Assembly (NCBI GenBank): GCA_966212545.1
Contig: CBIHRW010000015.1
Location: 514 to 64,513, forward strand
Length of the DNA: 64,000 nt
Reading direction: 5' to 3'
Source of the DNA: an uncultured Noviherbaspirillum sp.
Lineage (GTDB): Bacteria > Pseudomonadota > Gammaproteobacteria > Burkholderiales > Burkholderiaceae_D
Made by a program: the position numbers and the translations under genes. Every line of letters starts with the position of its first letter. Within the stretch, counting starts at the first letter, position 1. The notes under the pieces were generated by a model, which was given only the letters and a program-made list of their open reading frames with translations, was not told the origin of the DNA and searched no databases. Positions 9,305 to 17,601 of the stretch are shown piece after piece.

Positions 9305-10255
9305 CTAGGCAGTCACGGTTTCCCTGACCAGGTGCAGCGGCGTTGACGCAGCCGGCTGCCCGCCGGCATTTGCCTCTTCGAACAGAAATTCCGTCGCCAT
9401 GCGGATGATCTCCGGTGATCCGGTCATCTTGTAATGCCCGATTCCCTCAACCTTTTCGAAACGCGCCCCGCGGATGAGCTGCCCGTAGCGCTGGCCATGC
9501 GAAAACGGCACGATGTCGTCCGACGGGTTATGGAACAGCAGCACCGGCGTCTTGATCCTGGGGGCAACCGTCTCGACATCGACGTCGGCGAACGTCACGC
9601 CGTGCGTTCTTTCAATCCGGCGCTGTATCCCGTCGACCACCTTGCGCGACATCCCGAGCATCGCGCCGAACTGGTCGAGGAACACGCGCGGATGTTTAGG
9701 CGGCGCAAGCAATACTGCGCGCATATCGCTCCGACCCGATTCCGCCAGCACAAACGCAGTCGCCGCGGCACCCAGGGAATGCGCGACGATGCCCTTGACC
9801 GTGGGGAATGACGCAAACAGTTCGCGCGTCGTATGGATAAATACCGGCAATGACGAGAACTTGCCGTTGCTGCGGCCGTGCGCCACGTGGTCGACAGCCA
9901 CCACGGCCATACCCTGCTCCAGCAGCGCCGGGACGAATCCCGCAAGCTGCAGGCCCCAGCCATTCCATCCATGCAGGAGCAGCACCACCGGCTGAGACGC
10001 CGGGTCACCCCATACGTACGCCGACACGTCGCCGCCGGACAGCGGCAGCGTGCGGGTCAGCGGCGGCGGCAGTGTCGCTTCGGGCGCCAGGCGGGCTTTG
10101 CCGGGGCGCATGGGGGTGCCGAACATGCGGAAGCCCTTTTCCACCGCAAGCCGCGGCGCGACGACTGAACCAAGCGCGAAGGCAGTGCGATAGGAAATAA
10201 ATAAAAACGACCGAACGGTCTTTTTTACGGCAAGCTTGAATGACGCGTTTTTCAT
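9305..10255 (-). CDS. Alpha/beta hydrolase
   Basis: Oxyanion region LLLHGWNGW, nucleophile elbow AHSLGA, C-terminal His region (GIGHY). Confidence 0.75.
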   Translation of the reverse strand: MKNASFKLAVKKTVRSFLFISYRTAFALGSVVAPRLAVEKGFRMFGTPMRPGKARLAPEATLPPPLTRTLPLSGGDVSAYVWGDPASQPVVLLLHGWNGWGLQLAGFVPALLEQGMAVVAVDHVAHGRSNGKFSSLPVFIHTTRELFASFPTVKGIVAHSLGAAATAFVLAESGRSDMRAVLLAPPKHPRVFLDQFGAMLGMSRKVVDGIQRRIERTHGVTFADVDVETVAPRIKTPVLLFHNPSDDIVPFSHGQRYGQLIRGARFEKVEGIGHYKMTGSPEIIRMATEFLFEEANAGGQPAASTPLHLVRETVTA

Positions 10256-10266
10256 GGCGTTCTCCG

Positions 10267-10878
10267 TCAGGGTTGGGAATGAGCTATGTGGGTCAATTGA
10301 TCGAAAGCCTGCATCGCGCGGGCATTCACCTGCTTGCGCCCGAGCAGGCGCCTTTCCATCTGCGCAGCGCTGATCAGGCCATGCATCACCATTACAAGGG
10401 CGTCAGGTGCGAGCCCTGCAGGCAGTTGCCCGGCGTCAGCCGCCTTGCGTGCCTGGTTCACCAGGTAGCTGTTCCACTCCGCGGTAGCGTGCCGCAGGTG
10501 CTCGCGGACCTGGTTCTGTTCGTCATCGAATTCCTGCTGCGCACAGAGCAGCGGGCAACCGCCCCGCAACCCCGCCCTGTCGATCCAGCTCAGCCAGTAT
10601 TCGAGGATTGCACGAAGGCGCGGCAAGCCGGCCGGTACAGGCTGGGCTGGGATCAGGACGAGCTCACGGAAGCGCCGGAATGCATGATCCAGCACCGCGA
10701 TCCGCAGACTTTCCTTGCTGGGGAAATGGCGCAGTAGACCGCCCTTCGAACGACCTGCGGCGGCTGCCAGCGGCGCCAGCGTCAGACGGGCGACGCCGGT
10801 CATGCTGGCTTCCTGCAGCGCGGTATCGAGGAAGGCTTCGCGCGTCAATTCACTCTTGGAAAGGGTTCTCTGGTCCAT
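10267..10878 (-). CDS. TetR/AcrR family transcriptional regulator
   Basis: N-terminal HTH region (REAFLDTALQEASMTGVARLTLAPLAAAAGRSKGGLLRHFPSKE). Co-oriented with, and 12 nt upstream of, the hydrolase gene. Confidence 0.8.
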   Translation of the reverse strand: MDQRTLSKSELTREAFLDTALQEASMTGVARLTLAPLAAAAGRSKGGLLRHFPSKESLRIAVLDHAFRRFRELVLIPAQPVPAGLPRLRAILEYWLSWIDRAGLRGGCPLLCAQQEFDDEQNQVREHLRHATAEWNSYLVNQARKAADAGQLPAGLAPDALVMVMHGLISAAQMERRLLGRKQVNARAMQAFDQLTHIAHSQP

Positions 10879-11108
10879 ACGTCATCTTGCGACCGATTGG
10901 TCTTTTTTAGGAGAATAGCACGAAAACGAAAAAGCATGGTCTTCGATGATTTTGATCGAGAATCGGCCGTCATTGAAATGCGGGCTAAAAGGCAGAAACC
11001 GTCTCAAAACTGCAGTTCGGAAAGCGAAGATTCAACGCCGTTTTAACCGGCGCGCTTGCGCAACAGTGTTGAAATGCAAGTTAGCCCTCAGATTGCAGCA
11101 AGGTTTGT

Positions 11109-11597
11109 TCACGCCTGACCTTTTGCAAAGTCACCCATTGGATCGAAGATGATGATTTCTTTCGATTGAGAGAACGAGTGAGCCAACAAAATTCTTGCGT
11201 ACTGAAACCGCTCACCATCGATCCTGCGAACGTAGACGGTTCTCGCGTCCGTGAGCCCGACGAGATGCCCCCGGTTTTCGACGTTACCAAGGTCGTCAAT
11301 TTCGTCGGACCAAGCAACCGGGATTGATTTGCCCTTTGAATCGTAGACCGTCAAGTCAGTGATGCACGCTTTACGCTTCGACTTGTTGAAGAGAGGAATT
11401 TGAAGAACGCAGTCCGAATTCTGGCGCACGTTCAAACCCGGATGACTAACTTTACGAATAAAGATGCGCTCATCGGATTTAGCATCTTCCTGGATTGACT
11501 TGGCGAGGAGATAGCTGCGGAACGCAGTTGCGGCAGAGAACACCGCCATGAGCGCCGAAAACGTGGCAGTGGCGATCGATACTGACTGTGCGTCCAT
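11109..11597 (-). CDS. Orphan hypothetical protein with one N-terminal TM helix, in a low-GC islet
   Basis: ATG preceded by AAAGGAA. TM segment SVSIATATFSALMAVFSAATAF followed by a ~130-aa beta-rich-looking domain. Visibly AT-richer than the neighbours. No family recognised. Confidence 0.5.
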   Translation of the reverse strand: MDAQSVSIATATFSALMAVFSAATAFRSYLLAKSIQEDAKSDERIFIRKVSHPGLNVRQNSDCVLQIPLFNKSKRKACITDLTVYDSKGKSIPVAWSDEIDDLGNVENRGHLVGLTDARTVYVRRIDGERFQYARILLAHSFSQSKEIIIFDPMGDFAKGQA

Positions 11598-11917
11598 GCG
11601 AATTCCTTTCTGAGGTCTAACTTCATTAGACGGGCAAATACCGTCCGATTAACTTGGAACCGTGTCCGTATAACTAGGCTGGCACAAACGCCAAGTCATT
11701 GACAACAAAGACAATTTCTCACGACTTGATTGGTTAATCATACCTAACCAACCAGGAAATGCGGACAACCAACCCTGACGGGCTGTACCCTTAAGAGACA
11801 TGAGCCTGACTCCTCAGCCCGAGCTGGACTTCTTCCTTGGTTCAATATTTGCAGAGCTGCAGTGCGAGCAAGGCCAATATCAGGCCCGCGCCCACGACTT
11901 TTCACACAGACAAGCAC

Positions 11918-13702
11918 TCAATCCACCCGCGCCTCGTCCTTCACCTTGATCCCGTCCTGCTCGAAGGATTGCTCCAGCGCCTCGCGCGCAGCCCTGGCGA
12001 TGGAGATGGTTTTCATGTCGTCGCGGAAGTGCGGGAACATCGCGTCCAGCGTCTCCAAGTTGTGCTCCCGGAACTTGACCCGGGCGAGTTCTGCGGTGTG
12101 CGGATCGAATCCCATCTGTTCCAGTGCCCTGCGCGCGATGAGCAAAGCCGATTCGAATGTTTCCCGCTCGAACATCTCGATGCCGCGACTGCGCAGCTCG
12201 AAGACATGGGGCACATCGCGCGCCCTGCTGATGAGCTTGAGGTGCGGGAAATGCGAGCGCACCAGGTCGACCAGCCTGAGGTTGCTCTCGACGTCGTCGA
12301 TGGCGTTGATCAGCAGGATTGCCTTGTCCGCCTCCGCCGCGCGCAGCAAGTCCAGCCGCGTGGCATCGCCGTAGTAGACCTTGAAGCCGAAGCGGCTGAC
12401 GGTGTCGATCATGTCCGGGTCGTTGTCGAGCACGGTGGCTTTAATGCCCGAGGCATAGAGCATGCGGCCGACGATCTGGCCGACGCGGCCGAAGCCGGCG
12501 ATGATGACGCGCGCGCCGCCGGGTTCGATGGTGTCGGTCTCGCGCGGCGGCGCTTCATGGAACTTCCTGCCCAGCCAGTTGCCGGCGTTTAAAGCCAGCG
12601 GCGTCAGTGCCATGGACACGGCAACCACCAGGGGCAGCATGTCGTTCCAGGGTTGCGGGATGAGCTTGGCGTCGCTCGCGGCGGCGAACAGCACGAATGC
12701 GAATTCACTGCCCTGCGCCAGCAGTCCGGCAAAGCTCAAGCGCTGGACAGGGGCAATCGGCAGCACGCGCGCGAGCAGGCCGAGCAGCGCCATCTTCAGC
12801 AGCATGTAGACCACCGTGACGCCGAGGATGGTCAGCGGCGCCGATGCCAGCAGGTCAAGGTTCATCGACATGCCGACCGAGGTGAAGAACAGGCCGAGCA
12901 GCAGGCCCTTGAAGGGCTCAAGGTCGGTCTCCAGCGCCTTGCGGTACTCCGACTGTGCAAGCAGGACGCCGGCGAGGAAGGCGCCCAGACCCATCGACAG
13001 GTTGGCCAGCGTCATCAAATGCGCCGTTCCCAGCACCAGCAGCAACGAGAACGCGGTGAAAATTTCTCGCAGCTTGGTGCGCGCAATCAGGCGCAGGCAG
13101 GGGCGCAGCATGTAGCGGCCCATGAGGTAGACAGCGGCGAGCGCGGCAGCGGCCAGCAGCCAGTTGAAGCCTTCGCCGCTTGCCGCCCTCTGCGCGCCGA
13201 GCAGCGGCACGACGACCAGCAGCGGAATTGCCGCCATGTCCTGGAACAGCAGGATGGCGAAGGCGTTCTTGCCCGCCGGCGTATTCTGCAGATGCTTCTC
13301 CTGCATGCTTTGCATTGCGATCGCGGTCGACGACAGCGCCAGTGCGAGCCCGGTGACAAGCGCAGCCACCAAGGGCATCCCGGCGAGCCAGGCCACGCCG
13401 GCCAGCGGAATGCCGCATGCCAGCATCTGCAGGGTGCCGCCGCCGAACACGATGGTGCGCATCTCCAGCAGCTTCTTCGGCTGCAGTTCCAGGCCGATGA
13501 GGAAGAGCATCAGTACCACACCGATCTCGGCAACATGGCTGATCACCTCGACGTTCTTGACCACAGCCAGTCCCCAGGGGCCGATGAGGCATCCGCCGAC
13601 CAGGTAGCCGAGCACGGAACCGAGGCCGAGCCGCTGCGCGAGCGGCACGAGCAGGACGGCGGTCAGGAGGAAAACGAGAGGCGTAGGCAGCAGGTCGTGC
13701 AT
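11918..13702 (-). CDS. Glutathione-regulated K+ efflux / CPA2 monovalent cation:proton antiporter (KefB/KefC type) with C-terminal RCK/TrkA-N domain
   Basis: 594 aa. Roughly 12 TM helices, then a Rossmann motif IIAGFGRVGQIVGR and the KTN domain. Confidence 0.85.
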   Translation of the reverse strand: MHDLLPTPLVFLLTAVLLVPLAQRLGLGSVLGYLVGGCLIGPWGLAVVKNVEVISHVAEIGVVLMLFLIGLELQPKKLLEMRTIVFGGGTLQMLACGIPLAGVAWLAGMPLVAALVTGLALALSSTAIAMQSMQEKHLQNTPAGKNAFAILLFQDMAAIPLLVVVPLLGAQRAASGEGFNWLLAAAALAAVYLMGRYMLRPCLRLIARTKLREIFTAFSLLLVLGTAHLMTLANLSMGLGAFLAGVLLAQSEYRKALETDLEPFKGLLLGLFFTSVGMSMNLDLLASAPLTILGVTVVYMLLKMALLGLLARVLPIAPVQRLSFAGLLAQGSEFAFVLFAAASDAKLIPQPWNDMLPLVVAVSMALTPLALNAGNWLGRKFHEAPPRETDTIEPGGARVIIAGFGRVGQIVGRMLYASGIKATVLDNDPDMIDTVSRFGFKVYYGDATRLDLLRAAEADKAILLINAIDDVESNLRLVDLVRSHFPHLKLISRARDVPHVFELRSRGIEMFERETFESALLIARRALEQMGFDPHTAELARVKFREHNLETLDAMFPHFRDDMKTISIARAAREALEQSFEQDGIKVKDEARVD

Positions 13703-13826: not shown

Positions 13827-14462
13827 ATGAGTTACCTAAAAGAAATCGCTCTTCTACAGTGCGAGAAGGCGGTGGAGCGTCCTGGCGGTTTGCTTCGTCC
13901 CGCCCCGCCCTTGAATAGGGCAGTCCAACGCTTCACCGTCCTGATCGCGCTCTTCACTGCCGGGTTCCTGCTTTACGGTGCGTGGTCCTTCAAGACGCTG
14001 GAGGAGCTGAAAGTCAACGGCCCGCTCTACCAGCGCATCGTTCAGTGCAGGAACCTGATCGCCGACATCCTGCCGCCTCCCGAATACGTCATCGAGTCCT
14101 GCCTGGTCACCATGCAGATGCATGACGCCGCAGACAAGGCTGAGGTGGATCGCCTCAAGGTCCTGAAGGGCGACTACGACATACGTCATGCGTTCTGGCA
14201 AAAGGAAGTCCTGGAGAAGGATCTTGCCGATGCCTTCCTGCGCAGCGCACATGATCCGACAACCGCTTTTTATGGGGTGGCATTCAATGAATTCATCCCT
14301 GTCGTGCAGAAGCAGGATAAGGATGTGGCGAACACGGCGAAGGGGCGCATGAAGCAGCACGACGAGGCACATTGCAAGGCGGTCCACCAAGTGGTGCAGA
14401 TGACGACCCGGCGCTACGAGGGTGACGAGGCGGGTGCCAGGGCGAGCATCGAGTCCAGATGA
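13827..14462 (+). CDS. Membrane-anchored helical-domain protein, sensor-module-like, with no output domain
   Basis: TM helix FTVLIALFTAGFLLYGAW, then a helical region with NGPLYQRIV...ADILPPPEYVIES. This resembles (from memory) N-terminal ligand-binding bundles of MCP/GGDEF proteins. The ORF ends at 211 aa and is followed by a hairpin terminator. No obvious RBS. Confidence 0.45.
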   Translation: MSYLKEIALLQCEKAVERPGGLLRPAPPLNRAVQRFTVLIALFTAGFLLYGAWSFKTLEELKVNGPLYQRIVQCRNLIADILPPPEYVIESCLVTMQMHDAADKAEVDRLKVLKGDYDIRHAFWQKEVLEKDLADAFLRSAHDPTTAFYGVAFNEFIPVVQKQDKDVANTAKGRMKQHDEAHCKAVHQVVQMTTRRYEGDEAGARASIESR

Positions 14463-14594: not shown

Positions 14595-17318
14595 TCACAC
14601 TCCAGACGCTGTCCTCTCGCTCCCCAGCACCGTATTCAGCAGCAAGGCCAGGTTGCGCGCGGCCGCGGTCAACTGCGCCGTCACGATCGGCTTGCAGCGG
14701 CTGTCGTACGCCGCCTTCCCTTCCCACGAGACCTTGTACTTGCCGCCGTCCAGCCTGTCGGTGATGCGCAGGGTCTCGTAGGCGGCGCGCGCATGCAGGA
14801 GCGCCGTATTGGCCCACTGCACGCCCCATTGGTCTGGCGGCACGGTTTCCGCGAGGCCGACTGCATCCTCTCCCGTTGTCGTCCTGTTCGCTTCGATCAT
14901 TTCCAGCAGCTTGTTGATGAAACGCTTCTTCATGTCCGGGCTGGCCGGTTCGTCGCTTCCACCCGCCGTCATCGCTTCGATATTGCCGGGAATGCGGCTG
15001 TCCCAGTAGGCATGCAGGCTTACATTGCCGCCGAGGGGCAGGATGAGGTTGTTGCCGCCCTTGTCGTGCGGCAGCCTTTTGCGCAGGATGGTCTGCGGGT
15101 CGGACACCAGTTGCGGCATGCCCCCGGATGCATCGATGAAGCCGCAGCCGATGTGCACCGGCTGGTGCACGTCACCGACCAGATGCACCAGCCAGCGCAA
15201 CGCGTTCAGCTTGCTCATCACCTTAGAGTCGCCCTGCAGCACCCGCACCGTAACCCGGACCATTTCCACCACATCGTCGCTGCGCGTAAATTCGAGGCGC
15301 TTCGCCTCGGCATAGCTGGGCACGCCGAGCGGCAGGTTGACGTAGTGCCAGTCCCTGCTTTCCGCATTCGGAAAATCGCGCAGGAATTCGGCGGTGTCCG
15401 GATCGACGCTGGATCCCGGCCCGCCGCCCTTGATGCGGTCGGCCCAGCCTGCGATCTCCCTCAGGCTGGCCTCTGTGCCGAGCGGCGCGAGCAGGCGCTC
15501 GACCTCTTCGCGGGCGCGCTGGTTCAGCAGGCGGTCGGCTGCACCGGCGATCAGCTCGTGGCGCGAGATGCCCCAGAACTCGGAGGCATACAGAGTGGCG
15601 TTCTCCCTGGTCAGCTCGTCGCGCGGTACCGTGCGGCCATAGACCGGCGCCGCGGCGCCGCCGCGCGGCTGCGCAGAAGGATTGTGCAGCGGCTGCAGGC
15701 TTTCGAAGGCCGCGCGTACCGCTGCGTCCGCATCGACGCAGCCATGCCCGAAGTAGATGGAATGGCCGTTTTCATCATACGTCTCGGGGTCGCCGACCTT
15801 GCGTGCCGTGCTCTGCAGAATCTGCTTCACCTGCCGCGCCGTCAGCGCGGGGTTGACCGACAGCACCAGCGCGCAGATGCCGGCCACCAGCGGCGTGGCG
15901 CTCGAGGTGCCGCCGAAGGTCCGGGTGTAGTCGCCGGCCTCGTATCCGGCCTCATACGTCACACCCTGGAACTGGAAGGTGCCGCGTACATCGGAGGTAA
16001 GGATGCCCCTGCCACCCGCGCCGCTCGACGGTGCGCAGATAGCGATTTCCTTGCCGAAGTTGGAGTAATTCGATTTTTCGTCGCGGCTGTTGCAGGCGGC
16101 GACGGCAAGCACATCGGGATGCGTGGCGAATCCGTCCACGGTGCCGCCTTGCGGATCGTTGATGTCATGATTGGAATTTCCCGCCGCAAAGACCACGACG
16201 CAGCCCCGTCCGTTGCGGCCTTCGGTCGCGCATTCGGCAATGGCTTCGTCCATTGCCGTCGACAGGTAGAACTCGTCCGCGGCGACGCCCCAGCTGCAGC
16301 TCACTACCCACGCCCCTTGCGTTGCGACGTAGGCGAACTGCCGCCTGATGGTGTCGTCGGAGATCGAGCTGTTCCAGCGCACAGGCATGAAGCGGCAGCC
16401 CGGCGCGGCGCCGATGATGCCGCCGGCGCTGGCATTGCCGATCGCCACGCCCGCGCAGGCGGTGCCGTGGTAGTCGCCACGCCGCGAATCGGGATGGAAG
16501 CGCCTGGGCGAAGGATTGTCGGTGTTCGTCGTGAAATCCCATGGCGCAACAACTTTGCTGTTGCCCGACAGGTCGGGATGCGACAGATCAAAGCCGTCGT
16601 CGATCACCGCGACGATGCACGCCGGCGAACCGAGCGATTGCGCGCGCTCCCATGCGGCGGTGACGCGCGCATCCGCGCCGGGTTTCAGACCCAGCGAACT
16701 GCCGAACTGGACGCCGTCATTTTTCAGGTGCCACTGGTCCCGGAGGAAGCTGTCGACCGGCATCTGGAAAGCAAGCAATTGCCCCGGCGTAGCCAGGTCG
16801 GGTTCGGCAAGCGCCACCACACCGCCATCCTGCTGCAGCTTCTCGGCAACCTTGAGCGGATTGGGCGCATCGGGCGTCGTCCTCACGGTGAATGTCTCGA
16901 CAGCGGTGCCGTCAGGTTTCTGCTTGAGCGCCGACTCAACGATTTCGAGGTGATTGTCGTCGAGCACCTTCTGGCGCTGGTCGAAGCTCGATGCCGGCGT
17001 GAAGCGCAGCATGATCTTGCCGGTCGGGACGATCGGCGCGGAGCTCTTCGGCGTGTGATAGACGTGCGTGCCGGCATCGACGAGGTAATGGCTGCGCAGC
17101 TTGTCGAGGGTCTCCTCCACCTTGTCCTTCGCCGCGCGCACCTTGACGATCTCGAAGCCGCCGATGCTGGATCCGACATCCGTCGTCGAGACCGCATCCG
17201 GCACCGATGCCAGGACTTCCGCGACTCCCGCCTGCGATGTCGGCCGTATCGCGATCAGGTCATCGCTCTTGACGAGATTGACCATGCCACGGCCGCGCTT
17301 GAGGGTTACCTTGTCCAT
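14595..17318 (-). CDS. Fusion protein: I9-like propeptide region + subtilisin-family (S8) serine protease + S1/P1-type zinc nuclease; no signal peptide
   Basis: Start MDKVTLKRG at 17318, preceded by AAGGA. S8 triad motifs are VAVIDDGFD, HGTACAG and GGTSSATP, plus oxyanion AAGNS. The C-terminal domain has WGISRH, GWADRIK, WHYVNLP, LVHLVGDVHQPVH, DKGGNN and LHAYWD, the full S1/P1 nuclease ligand pattern. Confidence 0.85.
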   Translation of the reverse strand: MDKVTLKRGRGMVNLVKSDDLIAIRPTSQAGVAEVLASVPDAVSTTDVGSSIGGFEIVKVRAAKDKVEETLDKLRSHYLVDAGTHVYHTPKSSAPIVPTGKIMLRFTPASSFDQRQKVLDDNHLEIVESALKQKPDGTAVETFTVRTTPDAPNPLKVAEKLQQDGGVVALAEPDLATPGQLLAFQMPVDSFLRDQWHLKNDGVQFGSSLGLKPGADARVTAAWERAQSLGSPACIVAVIDDGFDLSHPDLSGNSKVVAPWDFTTNTDNPSPRRFHPDSRRGDYHGTACAGVAIGNASAGGIIGAAPGCRFMPVRWNSSISDDTIRRQFAYVATQGAWVVSCSWGVAADEFYLSTAMDEAIAECATEGRNGRGCVVVFAAGNSNHDINDPQGGTVDGFATHPDVLAVAACNSRDEKSNYSNFGKEIAICAPSSGAGGRGILTSDVRGTFQFQGVTYEAGYEAGDYTRTFGGTSSATPLVAGICALVLSVNPALTARQVKQILQSTARKVGDPETYDENGHSIYFGHGCVDADAAVRAAFESLQPLHNPSAQPRGGAAAPVYGRTVPRDELTRENATLYASEFWGISRHELIAGAADRLLNQRAREEVERLLAPLGTEASLREIAGWADRIKGGGPGSSVDPDTAEFLRDFPNAESRDWHYVNLPLGVPSYAEAKRLEFTRSDDVVEMVRVTVRVLQGDSKVMSKLNALRWLVHLVGDVHQPVHIGCGFIDASGGMPQLVSDPQTILRKRLPHDKGGNNLILPLGGNVSLHAYWDSRIPGNIEAMTAGGSDEPASPDMKKRFINKLLEMIEANRTTTGEDAVGLAETVPPDQWGVQWANTALLHARAAYETLRITDRLDGGKYKVSWEGKAAYDSRCKPIVTAQLTAAARNLALLLNTVLGSERTASGV

Positions 17319-17601
17319 TGTCGAATCCTTTCCAGAACTCAATTCATAAACAGGAGAGCCGGCGCCCCCCGGCGCCCGCGGTACAAGACGCGTTGCCAGG
17401 GCAGGCTCCAGGGCGCCTTCGCGATCTCGCCCGATGCGGCGAACGGCCCCATGAGAAAAGACGCCCAGGGGGGCCCCCAAGGACAGCTTAGCCGGACATT
17501 GTCACCGGCCGCTGATCTTCGGCAAAGCTACGCGCCGGAAGGTGGATATGATTTCGATTAAGATTGCCGGCGGCCATAATCAAAAATCACGGGAGACATC
17601 A

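Follow-up and report, generated by a model that had tools for sequence, protein, structure and literature searches.

A 64,000-nucleotide (nt) stretch of DNA from an uncultured Noviherbaspirillum species, referred to here as the window, carries on its reverse strand a gene (14595..17318; 907 codons plus a stop codon at 14595-14597) whose single product combines a tandem prodomain, an S8 (subtilisin-like) protease, a linker and an S1/P1 zinc nuclease. It is highly probable that both enzymes are functional and that they are made in the cytoplasm. The tryptophan that forms the first residue of solved S1/P1 nucleases is residue 582 of this protein, and it is fairly likely that the nuclease depends on proteolytic unmasking by the S8 domain to which it is fused. 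The explanation that combines these points, a protease-gated cytoplasmic nuclease zymogen, is in our judgement evenly balanced between right and wrong, and a role in conflict or self-destruction is possible rather than probable.

The nuclease and its masked tryptophan

The C-terminal part of the protein (residues 582-907; 14598..15575; this and all other parts of the gene lie on the reverse strand) is an S1/P1 trinuclear-zinc nuclease domain. It matches the Pfam family S1-P1_nuclease (PF02265) at residues 582-898, over positions 1-257 of a 258-position profile (E = 1.4e-28; 100.9 bits against a cutoff of 29.5), and all nine zinc ligands are present, namely W582, H587, D627, H658, H712, D716, H722, H769 and D773. 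The profile search agrees with the initial annotation, made from the sequence alone, which had proposed an S1/P1 nuclease with nine ligands at these very positions. Each of seven ligands (W582, H587, D627, H712, D716, H722 and H769) is retained in 26 of 27 fusions. For H658 and D773, conservation is complete among the 15 close-clade fusions; the distant clade has P/E in those columns, which is probably a misalignment.

The secreted S1/P1 nucleases (P1, S1, plant ENDO2/TBN1 and Stenotrophomonas SmNuc1) belong to the same Pfam family, cover the full profile and have the nine ligands in the same order. A profile of the nuclease clade matches no PDB entries other than solved S1/P1 nucleases. Among these SmNuc1 (8qjl), from a bacterium, gives the best match to the window nuclease, which is about 70 residues longer than the secreted enzymes because of insertions. 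Position 33 of the clade profile, a Trp with 32 positions preceding it, aligns with residue 1 of 8qjl, 4cxo, 3w52, 3sng and 1ak0. The nine zinc ligands of SmNuc1 have been listed, and its N-terminal Trp coordinates the zinc cluster via the main chain (PMC11705217). The secreted nucleases are exported and their Trp becomes residue 1 upon removal of the signal peptide, whereas the window protein is signal-less and its Trp stands behind a pro-motif and a protease. As encoded, therefore, the ligand Trp is an internal residue, and it would come to lie at a mature N-terminus only after proteolysis.

The pro-motif T-L-Y-A-S-E-F (residues 575-581; 15576..15596) directly precedes W582 and would place the scissile bond at F581/W582. 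Ahead of it lies a flexible, fast-evolving linker (residues 542-574; 15597..15695), whose sequence and length differ among homologues. In the AlphaFold model, residues 542-582 have a predicted local distance difference test (pLDDT) score below 50, corresponding to a disordered stretch of about 40 residues, and the linker proposed in the initial annotation is thereby borne out.

The residues ahead of the Trp fall into distinct patterns. In signal-bearing nucleases (n = 36), Ala is found at P3 in 25 and at P1 in 26. In free-standing signal-less nucleases (n = 65), P6 is Leu in 56, P5 is Tyr or Phe in 54, P2 is Glu in 52 and P1 is Phe in 52; the S8-fused nucleases (n = 62) have Leu at P6 in 33, Tyr at P5 in 29, Glu at P2 in 32 and Phe at P1 in 39. 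The consensus of the clade is thus a hydrophilic L-Y-x-x-E-F/W. About 70 free-standing relatives (37-60% identity) have hydrophilic extensions of 13-46 residues that end in it, while more distant nuclease relatives have classical signal peptides with the Trp straight after AxA. The motif L-Y-x-x-E-F also precedes the nuclease where it is fused to quite different, unrelated N-terminal modules. The simplest reading of these sequences is that the hydrophilic motif has been swapped in for the signal peptide, and that a dedicated cytoplasmic peptidase would replace signal peptidase in exposing the Trp.

The absence of an export signal, which had been remarked upon at the outset along with that of a transmembrane segment, extends to the whole family. 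The window protein has no hydrophobic N-terminal stretch (the maximum is 1.08 over 19-residue windows starting in the first 60 residues), and its top 19-residue hydropathy window is an S8 helix at 474. In a simple hydrophobic-core test on N-termini, no core was found in any of 119 homologous protease modules or 69 free pro-nucleases, against 36 of 42 signal-type nucleases. This signal-less protease/nuclease family spans at least four phyla with different envelopes. The proteins that recur as its partners (GMC, ferritin-like, cupin, DyP, M28, SLOG and RpiA-like) have no signal peptide either.

The protease module and its association with the nuclease

The S8 catalytic domain (residues 193-541; 15696..16742) matches Pfam Peptidase_S8 (PF00082) at residues 234-514 (E = 2.7e-42; 145.5 bits against a cutoff of 21.8). 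The catalytic triad consists of D240 (16599-16601), H284 (16467-16469) and S472 (15903-15905), with N381 (16176-16178) as the oxyanion residue; all four, which had been correctly placed before, are invariant in 27 of 27 fusions and in an alignment of 75 sequences. The nearest solved relatives, by sequence and by fold, are mirolase (8ehe), kexin and furin. These are enzymes of limited proteolysis with inhibitory prodomains. The initial annotation envisaged a gated enzyme that degrades both protein and nucleic acid. Gating fits the data, but the kinship of the S8 domain with processing proteases and the internal Trp behind a conserved pro-motif make it more likely that the protease activates a latent nuclease than that it contributes degradation of its own.

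The AlphaFold model (mean pLDDT 82.5) predicts two ferredoxin-like units ahead of the catalytic domain, at residues 3-88 and 96-177. The first subdomain (residues 1-88; 17055..17318) has a ferredoxin-like beta/alpha fold in the predicted secondary structure, matches no Pfam family and is conserved alongside the S8 domain in 75 homologues; on the model, it is a candidate regulatory domain or second prodomain. The second (residues 96-177; 16788..17033) forms a beta-alpha-beta-beta-alpha-beta unit (strand 96-106, helix 112-121, strands 124-133 and 139-147, helix 154-162, strand 168-177) in the position of a subtilase (I9-like) propeptide. In structural comparison, pro-subtilisin E and pro-Tk-subtilisin, both unautoprocessed, can be aligned with the full model over 440-498 columns, which exceeds the catalytic domain alone. 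In Foldseek, the N-terminal 232 residues on their own give only weak tandem RRM/ACT-like matches (E>=2e-3), none of them diagnostic. Inhibitor_I9 (PF05922) has no match in the whole protein at E<=0.1, or in residues 1-230 at E<=10. Support for the I9-type propeptide that had been suggested at about residues 100-180 thus comes from the predicted fold and not from the family profile, and the unit is best called a candidate propeptide.

Prodomain and protease meet at residues 178-192 (PGQLLAF/QMPVDSFL; 16743..16787). Residues 179-189 are disordered in the model (pLDDT below 50), F184 is conserved in at least 90% of the aligned sequences, and residue 4 of the mirolase chain aligns with residue 188 of the query, so that mature residue 1 of mirolase corresponds approximately to Q185. 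Taken together, these observations point to autoprocessing after F184, where the S8 domain probably cuts itself from its prodomain. Phe at both predicted sites, F184 and F581, fits a single specificity. Kexin-like dibasic cleavage was considered from the alignment of the substrate pocket, in which D241, D282 and D395 align with D176, D211 and D325 of Kex2, residues that bind basic P2/P1 side chains in kexin; neither junction has a conserved dibasic site. In some fusions of clade B (P0058, P0065, P0075 and similar proteins) the tandem prodomain is preceded by one more domain, which is bacterial SH3-like and about 90 residues long; these proteins likewise have no signal peptide.

The fusion is widespread. 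About 59 of the best 120 homologues carry both Pfam domains, and fusions are found in Betaproteobacteria, Acidobacteriota and Bacteroidota, including a Noviherbaspirillum metagenome-assembled genome (MAG; 89% identity), Pyrinomonadaceae (70%) and the complete genome of Rhodocytophaga rosea (CP048222; 65%). Such high identities across three phyla suggest, from sequence comparison, that the fusion may have spread horizontally. One relative, P0051, has a P-domain, and two distant-clade fusions give weak Zn_dep_PLPC matches.

The nuclease is associated with peptidases in several further ways. Firstly, Chitinophaga sp. HK235 (L011) has a split version, in which a 538-amino acid (aa) S8 gene overlaps a 311-aa nuclease gene whose product opens with 21 hydrophilic residues ending in QEL/W. 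Secondly, the order is reversed in P0042, where the nuclease comes first and is followed by the N-terminal module and the S8 domain; the nuclease begins with a 14-residue extension ending in VF/F. Thirdly, in five metagenome loci the nuclease is adjoined by a signal-less S8 gene of a second type, of about 455 aa. Fourthly, in Pseudomonas tructae and Variovorax a masked nuclease is the first gene of an operon that also encodes a HAD-M28 peptidase and a protein of 776 aa, and in P0247 an M28 peptidase and the nuclease form a single chain of 1891 aa. The involvement of two types of S8 protease and of M28 peptidases, by fusion, by adjacency and in both domain orders, argues for a protease-substrate relationship.

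The operons concerned lie at L092:8001-13398 and L093:8001-13370; their HAD-Peptidase_M28 protein has 635 aa and the 776-aa protein belongs to no known family. In Ruegeria (L015), an S8 module is located near homologues of the M28 and 776-aa genes. A second candidate for a split pair, P0034/P0121 (L199:4416-7119), was rejected: the two open reading frames (ORFs) share 59 nt and the start of the nuclease ORF falls within the linker of the fusion, and they are probably a frameshifted fusion, whether through sequencing error or in reality.

The gene has a credible start and is under selection. The ORF as listed (14595..17480, reverse strand; 961 aa) begins at an upstream TTG at 17480. The ATG at 17318-17316 opens the single uninterrupted frame of 907 aa plus stop that had been described initially. 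It is the credible start, because a Shine-Dalgarno-like sequence read directly from the DNA, GGAAAGGA (17326..17333, reverse strand), lies 7 nt 5' of it, and because homologues of 899-916 aa that align over 100% of the query share the start MDxVTLKRGRG. The GC content at third codon positions (GC3) is 0.81. Relative to the orthologue in a syntenic Noviherbaspirillum contig (L001), the ratio of nonsynonymous to synonymous substitution rates (dN/dS) is 0.125 for the whole gene, 0.065 for the S8 domain, 0.14 for the nuclease, 0.19 for the N-terminal region, 0.13 for the pro-motif segment (575-581) and 0.45 for the linker. Purifying selection thus acts on every domain, and the low values in the domains as against the relaxed linker indicate that both enzymes are maintained while the linker is free to vary.

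A proposed latent nuclease and the alternatives

We propose that the protein would be made in the cytoplasm as a self-contained, two-stage zymogen. Because the equivalent of W582 is residue 1 in solved S1/P1 nucleases, with its main chain on zinc, the nuclease should be latent as long as W582 is held in a peptide bond. In a first step the S8 domain would free itself from the prodomain, probably after F184; in a second step it would cut at or near F581/W582, in cis or in trans. Cleavage would expose the amino terminus of the Trp, complete the zinc site and switch the nuclease on. A fused or adjacent peptidase would in this way do the job that signal peptidase does for the secreted relatives. 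Such an enzyme might serve in regulated self-destruction or conflict, as in abortive-infection-like defence or programmed nucleic-acid breakdown.

A close parallel is the phospholipase PC-PLC of Listeria monocytogenes, which belongs to the zinc phospholipase C / P1 nuclease fold group and likewise has an N-terminal Trp in its metal site and a dedicated activating protease. Its proenzyme is inactive, and the protease Mpl removes a propeptide of 26 residues; one residue added before W1 switches the enzyme off, while a W1F variant stays active (PMC10576769). However, PC-PLC is a secreted phospholipase, and the enzyme that activates it is a metalloprotease with a gene of its own instead of a subtilase in the same chain.

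A wider reading is put forward more tentatively still: the protein may represent a family of suicide or conflict nucleases of the cytoplasm that is as yet undescribed, in which the trinuclear zinc site would be complete only once a dedicated peptidase has released the alpha-amino group of the ligand Trp. The masked nuclease with its L-Y-x-x-E-F/W tag would be a portable effector cassette mounted on varied activators and sensors. Among these would be both kinds of S8 protease, the M28 peptidases, a nucleotide-binding SLOG domain and a cassette of GMC oxidoreductase, ferritin-like and cupin proteins. The protease cut would then commit the system from sensing to destroying cellular or invader nucleic acid.

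Several observations weigh against a protease-gated zymogen with a role in conflict. The masked nuclease also turns up on modules in which no peptidase can be recognised, namely SLOG, ferritin-like together with Endonuclease I, and large uncharacterised regions; here the cut would have to come from a protease in trans, unless the clade tolerates an internal Trp. In the distant fusion clade the residue before the Trp varies (F, L, M, T or A) and the linker is only about 10 residues long. The acidic, kexin-type pocket fits poorly with Glu-Phe at P2-P1 as judged from the alignment, and this mismatch leaves the exact scissile bond uncertain. The protein contains 12 cysteines, of which the conserved ones include C288, C341, C363, C428, C482, C527, C725 and C875; these could form disulfides, as would suit an oxidising compartment. 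In the window, the fusion gene is a singleton amid housekeeping genes, tblastn with all partner proteins from other loci found none of them in the window, and PADLOC returned only its generic 'subtilase' model (E = 7e-13), limited to the S8 domain, and recognised no system. Finally, all steps of the mechanism beyond the intactness of both domains are inferred.

The first alternative is that the protein leaves the cell non-classically (for example by lysis, in vesicles or through a secretion signal that goes unrecognised) and acts as an extracellular or periplasmic scavenging or attack enzyme, in which the S8 domain serves for maturation and as a bulk protease while nucleotides or phosphate are gained through the nuclease. 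Secretion is typical of both S8 proteases and S1/P1 nucleases, and the distant nuclease relatives with their classical signal peptides are in keeping with this. The hosts (Chitinophaga, Sorangium, Rhodocytophaga and Acidobacteriota) are soil degraders and predators, the conserved cysteines of both domains could be paired, and the recurrent GMC oxidoreductase and DyP peroxidase neighbours are of types that are often extracellular. Yet not one of the protease modules or free pro-nucleases tested is signal-like, over at least four phyla, and the conserved hydrophilic motif specifically replaces the signal peptide of the related nucleases. No secretion-system genes or C-terminal domain of the type IX secretion system (T9SS) type were seen at the loci examined. 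The non-classically secreted scavenger, which the initial annotation had offered as the plain alternative, is weakened by a partner network that is signal-less as a whole, and we consider it unlikely. If the protein is exported after all, there would be an unrecognised export route common to a set of signal-less enzymes.

Somewhat less likely again is that the two enzymes are independent and constitutively competent in the cytoplasm, where they would contribute to regulated turnover of protein and nucleic acid, for instance in starvation, dormancy or development. The internal Trp would then be tolerated, and L-Y-x-x-E-F would be a structural or autoinhibitory element rather than a cleavage site. 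In favour of this, the same nuclease and motif occur on the modules without a recognisable peptidase, including uncharacterised regions of about 900-1100 aa; the gene sits in a conserved housekeeping neighbourhood in the window and in two related metagenome contigs; and cyanobacteria have, as a core gene in conserved synteny, a protease module of a distant clade. However, the Trp is residue 1 in every solved member of the family, and a single added residue abolishes the activity of the related zinc phospholipase C (PMC10576769). Three types of peptidase tied to one nuclease are also hard to explain without a protease-substrate relationship, and a cell would be expected to die from a non-specific nuclease that is constitutively active in its cytoplasm.

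The cyanobacterial proteins, which consist of the N-terminal module plus the S8 domain, belong to a distant clade (about 36% identity) that is widespread in filamentous cyanobacteria (L033-L091). There the gene stands alone, with about 540 aa and no nuclease partner, and is syntenic with housekeeping genes, among them those for a monothiol glutaredoxin-like protein, for a deaminase of the TadA type and for fructose bisphosphatase.

It is improbable that the protein is an antibacterial effector of the polymorphic-toxin type or one delivered by a secretion system, with the S8 domain releasing a C-terminal nuclease toxin in or near the target cell. The processing proteases listed for polymorphic toxins and for toxins delivered by Photorhabdus virulence cassettes (PVC) include subtilisin (PMC3482391), and a C-terminal nuclease with no Sec signal resembles contact-dependent effectors. 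The features that define polymorphic toxins, namely a trafficking domain, a variable C-terminal toxin and an adjacent immunity gene, are absent from the fusion. Pfam finds no trafficking domain, whether PAAR, VgrG, RHS, LXG, WXG, TpsA or another. Far from being polymorphic, the C-terminal domain co-evolves with the protease module, and there are no nearby secretion-system genes. No conserved immunity gene was found downstream, where the gene differs even between the window (a 211-aa ORF) and its closest relative (a histidine kinase).

An assembly or frameshift artefact joining two genes can be set aside almost entirely: although the overlapping halves in different frames at L199 show that frame errors occur in assemblies of this family, the error there runs towards a broken fusion and not towards two joined genes, full-length fusions have been obtained independently about 60 times, in several phyla and from several data sources (complete genome CP048222 among them), and the window gene has an uninterrupted frame, a GC3 of 0.81 and low dN/dS throughout.

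Known systems and genomic neighbourhoods

The window protease resembles kexin, furin and mirolase in that a prodomain precedes the catalytic domain, and it has the DDG and D-Y-H-G-T motifs in common with kexin. It differs from them in having no P-domain and no signal, in its tandem prodomain, in the Phe instead of a dibasic pair at the predicted P1 position, and in being fused to its presumed substrate. The logic of a latent lethal effector armed by site-specific proteolysis is familiar from bacterial gasdermins, which are released by adjacent proteases. The effector fold is different here, protease and effector usually form one polypeptide, and no PADLOC system is matched.

A conceptually similar description in the literature searched is 'System 3' of Kaur, Burroughs, Iyer and Aravind (2020), in which a NucA nuclease is fused or adjacent to peptidases, occasionally of the S8 family (PMC7159879). 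Its authors propose a proteolytic cascade that deploys the endonuclease (PMC7159879). System 3 has a NucA/HNH nuclease and a trypsin-like core peptidase, often with transmembrane segments and with EAD1 or STAND partners, none of which are found here. The window nuclease is of the S1/P1 type and its peptidase of the S8 type; the logic is similar, but the protein is not a member. Only in the S1/P1 case is the N-terminus that is masked a metal ligand.

Nothing relevant on fusions of S8 with S1/P1 or on S1/P1 nucleases in defence was found in the same literature, so that the suggestion that no such fusion had been described continues to hold there, with the peptidase-NucA coupling as a similar concept. 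What appears to be new is the intracellular, signal-less clade of S1/P1 nucleases, the masking of a ligand Trp by a conserved pro-motif and the fusion to a subtilase. The component families and the logic of protease-armed effectors are already known.

If the zymogen mechanism is correct, it would represent a new safety for a dangerous intracellular nuclease, in which the metal site is blocked until a ligand-adjacent peptide bond is cut, and F581/W582 would offer a defined and readily testable cleavage site. It would extend the S1/P1 nucleases from secreted scavenging to regulated intracellular effectors, and add a protease-armed nuclease to the proteolytically triggered cell-death effectors of bacteria. 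The network of M28, SLOG, RpiA-like and oxidoreductase partners across phyla would be a hunting ground for conflict and signalling systems. A self-activating protease-nuclease pair could also serve as an inducible kill switch.

Whether homologues lie in defence islands was among the checks suggested initially. The window itself shows no sign of a defence island, with a housekeeping neighbourhood and the generic subtilase match only; conflict-type neighbours are found elsewhere. Neighbours at other loci include TIR_2 with transposases, YLATT-pYEATS, HopA1, patatin, insertion sequence (IS) elements and McrBC, as well as a caspase-like peptidase, TPR-CHAT and GmrSD. These look like a conflict-system network, albeit an anecdotal one made up of individual loci. 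Searched against PADLOC-DB 2.0, the library (dated 2023) used for defence genes throughout, ten partner proteins from related loci gave no matches. YLATT and pYEATS are domains described in prokaryotic conflict systems. A YLATT-pYEATS gene is located 3' of the fusion in L005:10985-12780 and L097:9758-10690; in L005, an overlapping 279-aa ORF of no known family lies between it and the fusion, and a gene with a HopA1 domain lies upstream.

Two groups of partner genes recur. A four-gene cluster is found beside the nuclease locus in Rhodocytophaga rosea (L003:13911-19843) and Pseudomonas tructae (L092:505-5359), with 42-58% identity between the two. It encodes a protein of 608/641 aa, a protein of 368/358 aa, a SLOG protein of LDcluster4 and an RpiA-like protein, and has no PADLOC matches; in L163, the nuclease is directly fused to a SLOG-like region within the same four-gene cluster. 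The other group is a cassette of a 164-aa protein, a GMC oxidoreductase, a ferritin-like protein (PF12902) and a cupin, which lies beside S8/nuclease genes with 47-59% identity (L011:3822-7581, L101:4551-8117, L104:3647-8939 and L199:1310-4247). In L104 the ferritin-like domain forms one fusion protein with Endonuclease_1 and with the S1/P1 nuclease; in L101 and L199 a DyP peroxidase and DUF8225 are found upstream.

Three further ideas were considered and rejected. For an AAA-plus-subtilase system of the IetS/IetA type, no ATPase neighbour is found at any locus examined. As for a phage origin, viral contigs hold only distant S1/P1 nucleases (22-34% identity), none of them of the masked clade. 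Clustering of neighbours in search of a conserved immunity or inhibitor gene beside the fusions gave lineage-specific synteny only.

In the window and a Noviherbaspirillum MAG contig, the gene order is common to both: phosphatidylserine decarboxylase, hydrolase, TetR, KefB-like antiporter, fusion and HIT. Two related metagenome contigs also place the gene in this kind of conserved housekeeping neighbourhood. No tRNA gene and no Rfam family was found within the window, and no integrase signal near the fusion gene. The slot between the fusion and the antiporter holds a 211-aa ORF in the window (13827-14462, forward strand), which is convergent to the fusion gene, has a coding-like GC3 of 0.75 and matches no Pfam family. 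In the syntenic Noviherbaspirillum contigs L001 and L095 a hybrid histidine kinase of about 840 aa occupies the same position, which makes this a variable slot beside the fusion. Further along the window, at 10001-12000, the GC content dips to 0.565 against about 0.62. This region surrounds a 162-aa ORF (11109-11597) with a weak Ig-like match only, and does not contain the LysE and DUF7684 genes found in L001.

In Bradyrhizobium japonicum (L007:9646-11345), a stand-alone S8 module is followed by genes for proteins of 112 aa and 453 aa that have no Pfam or PADLOC match and could be a different effector for the same protease module. This locus sits in a transposase-rich island with a patatin-like gene.

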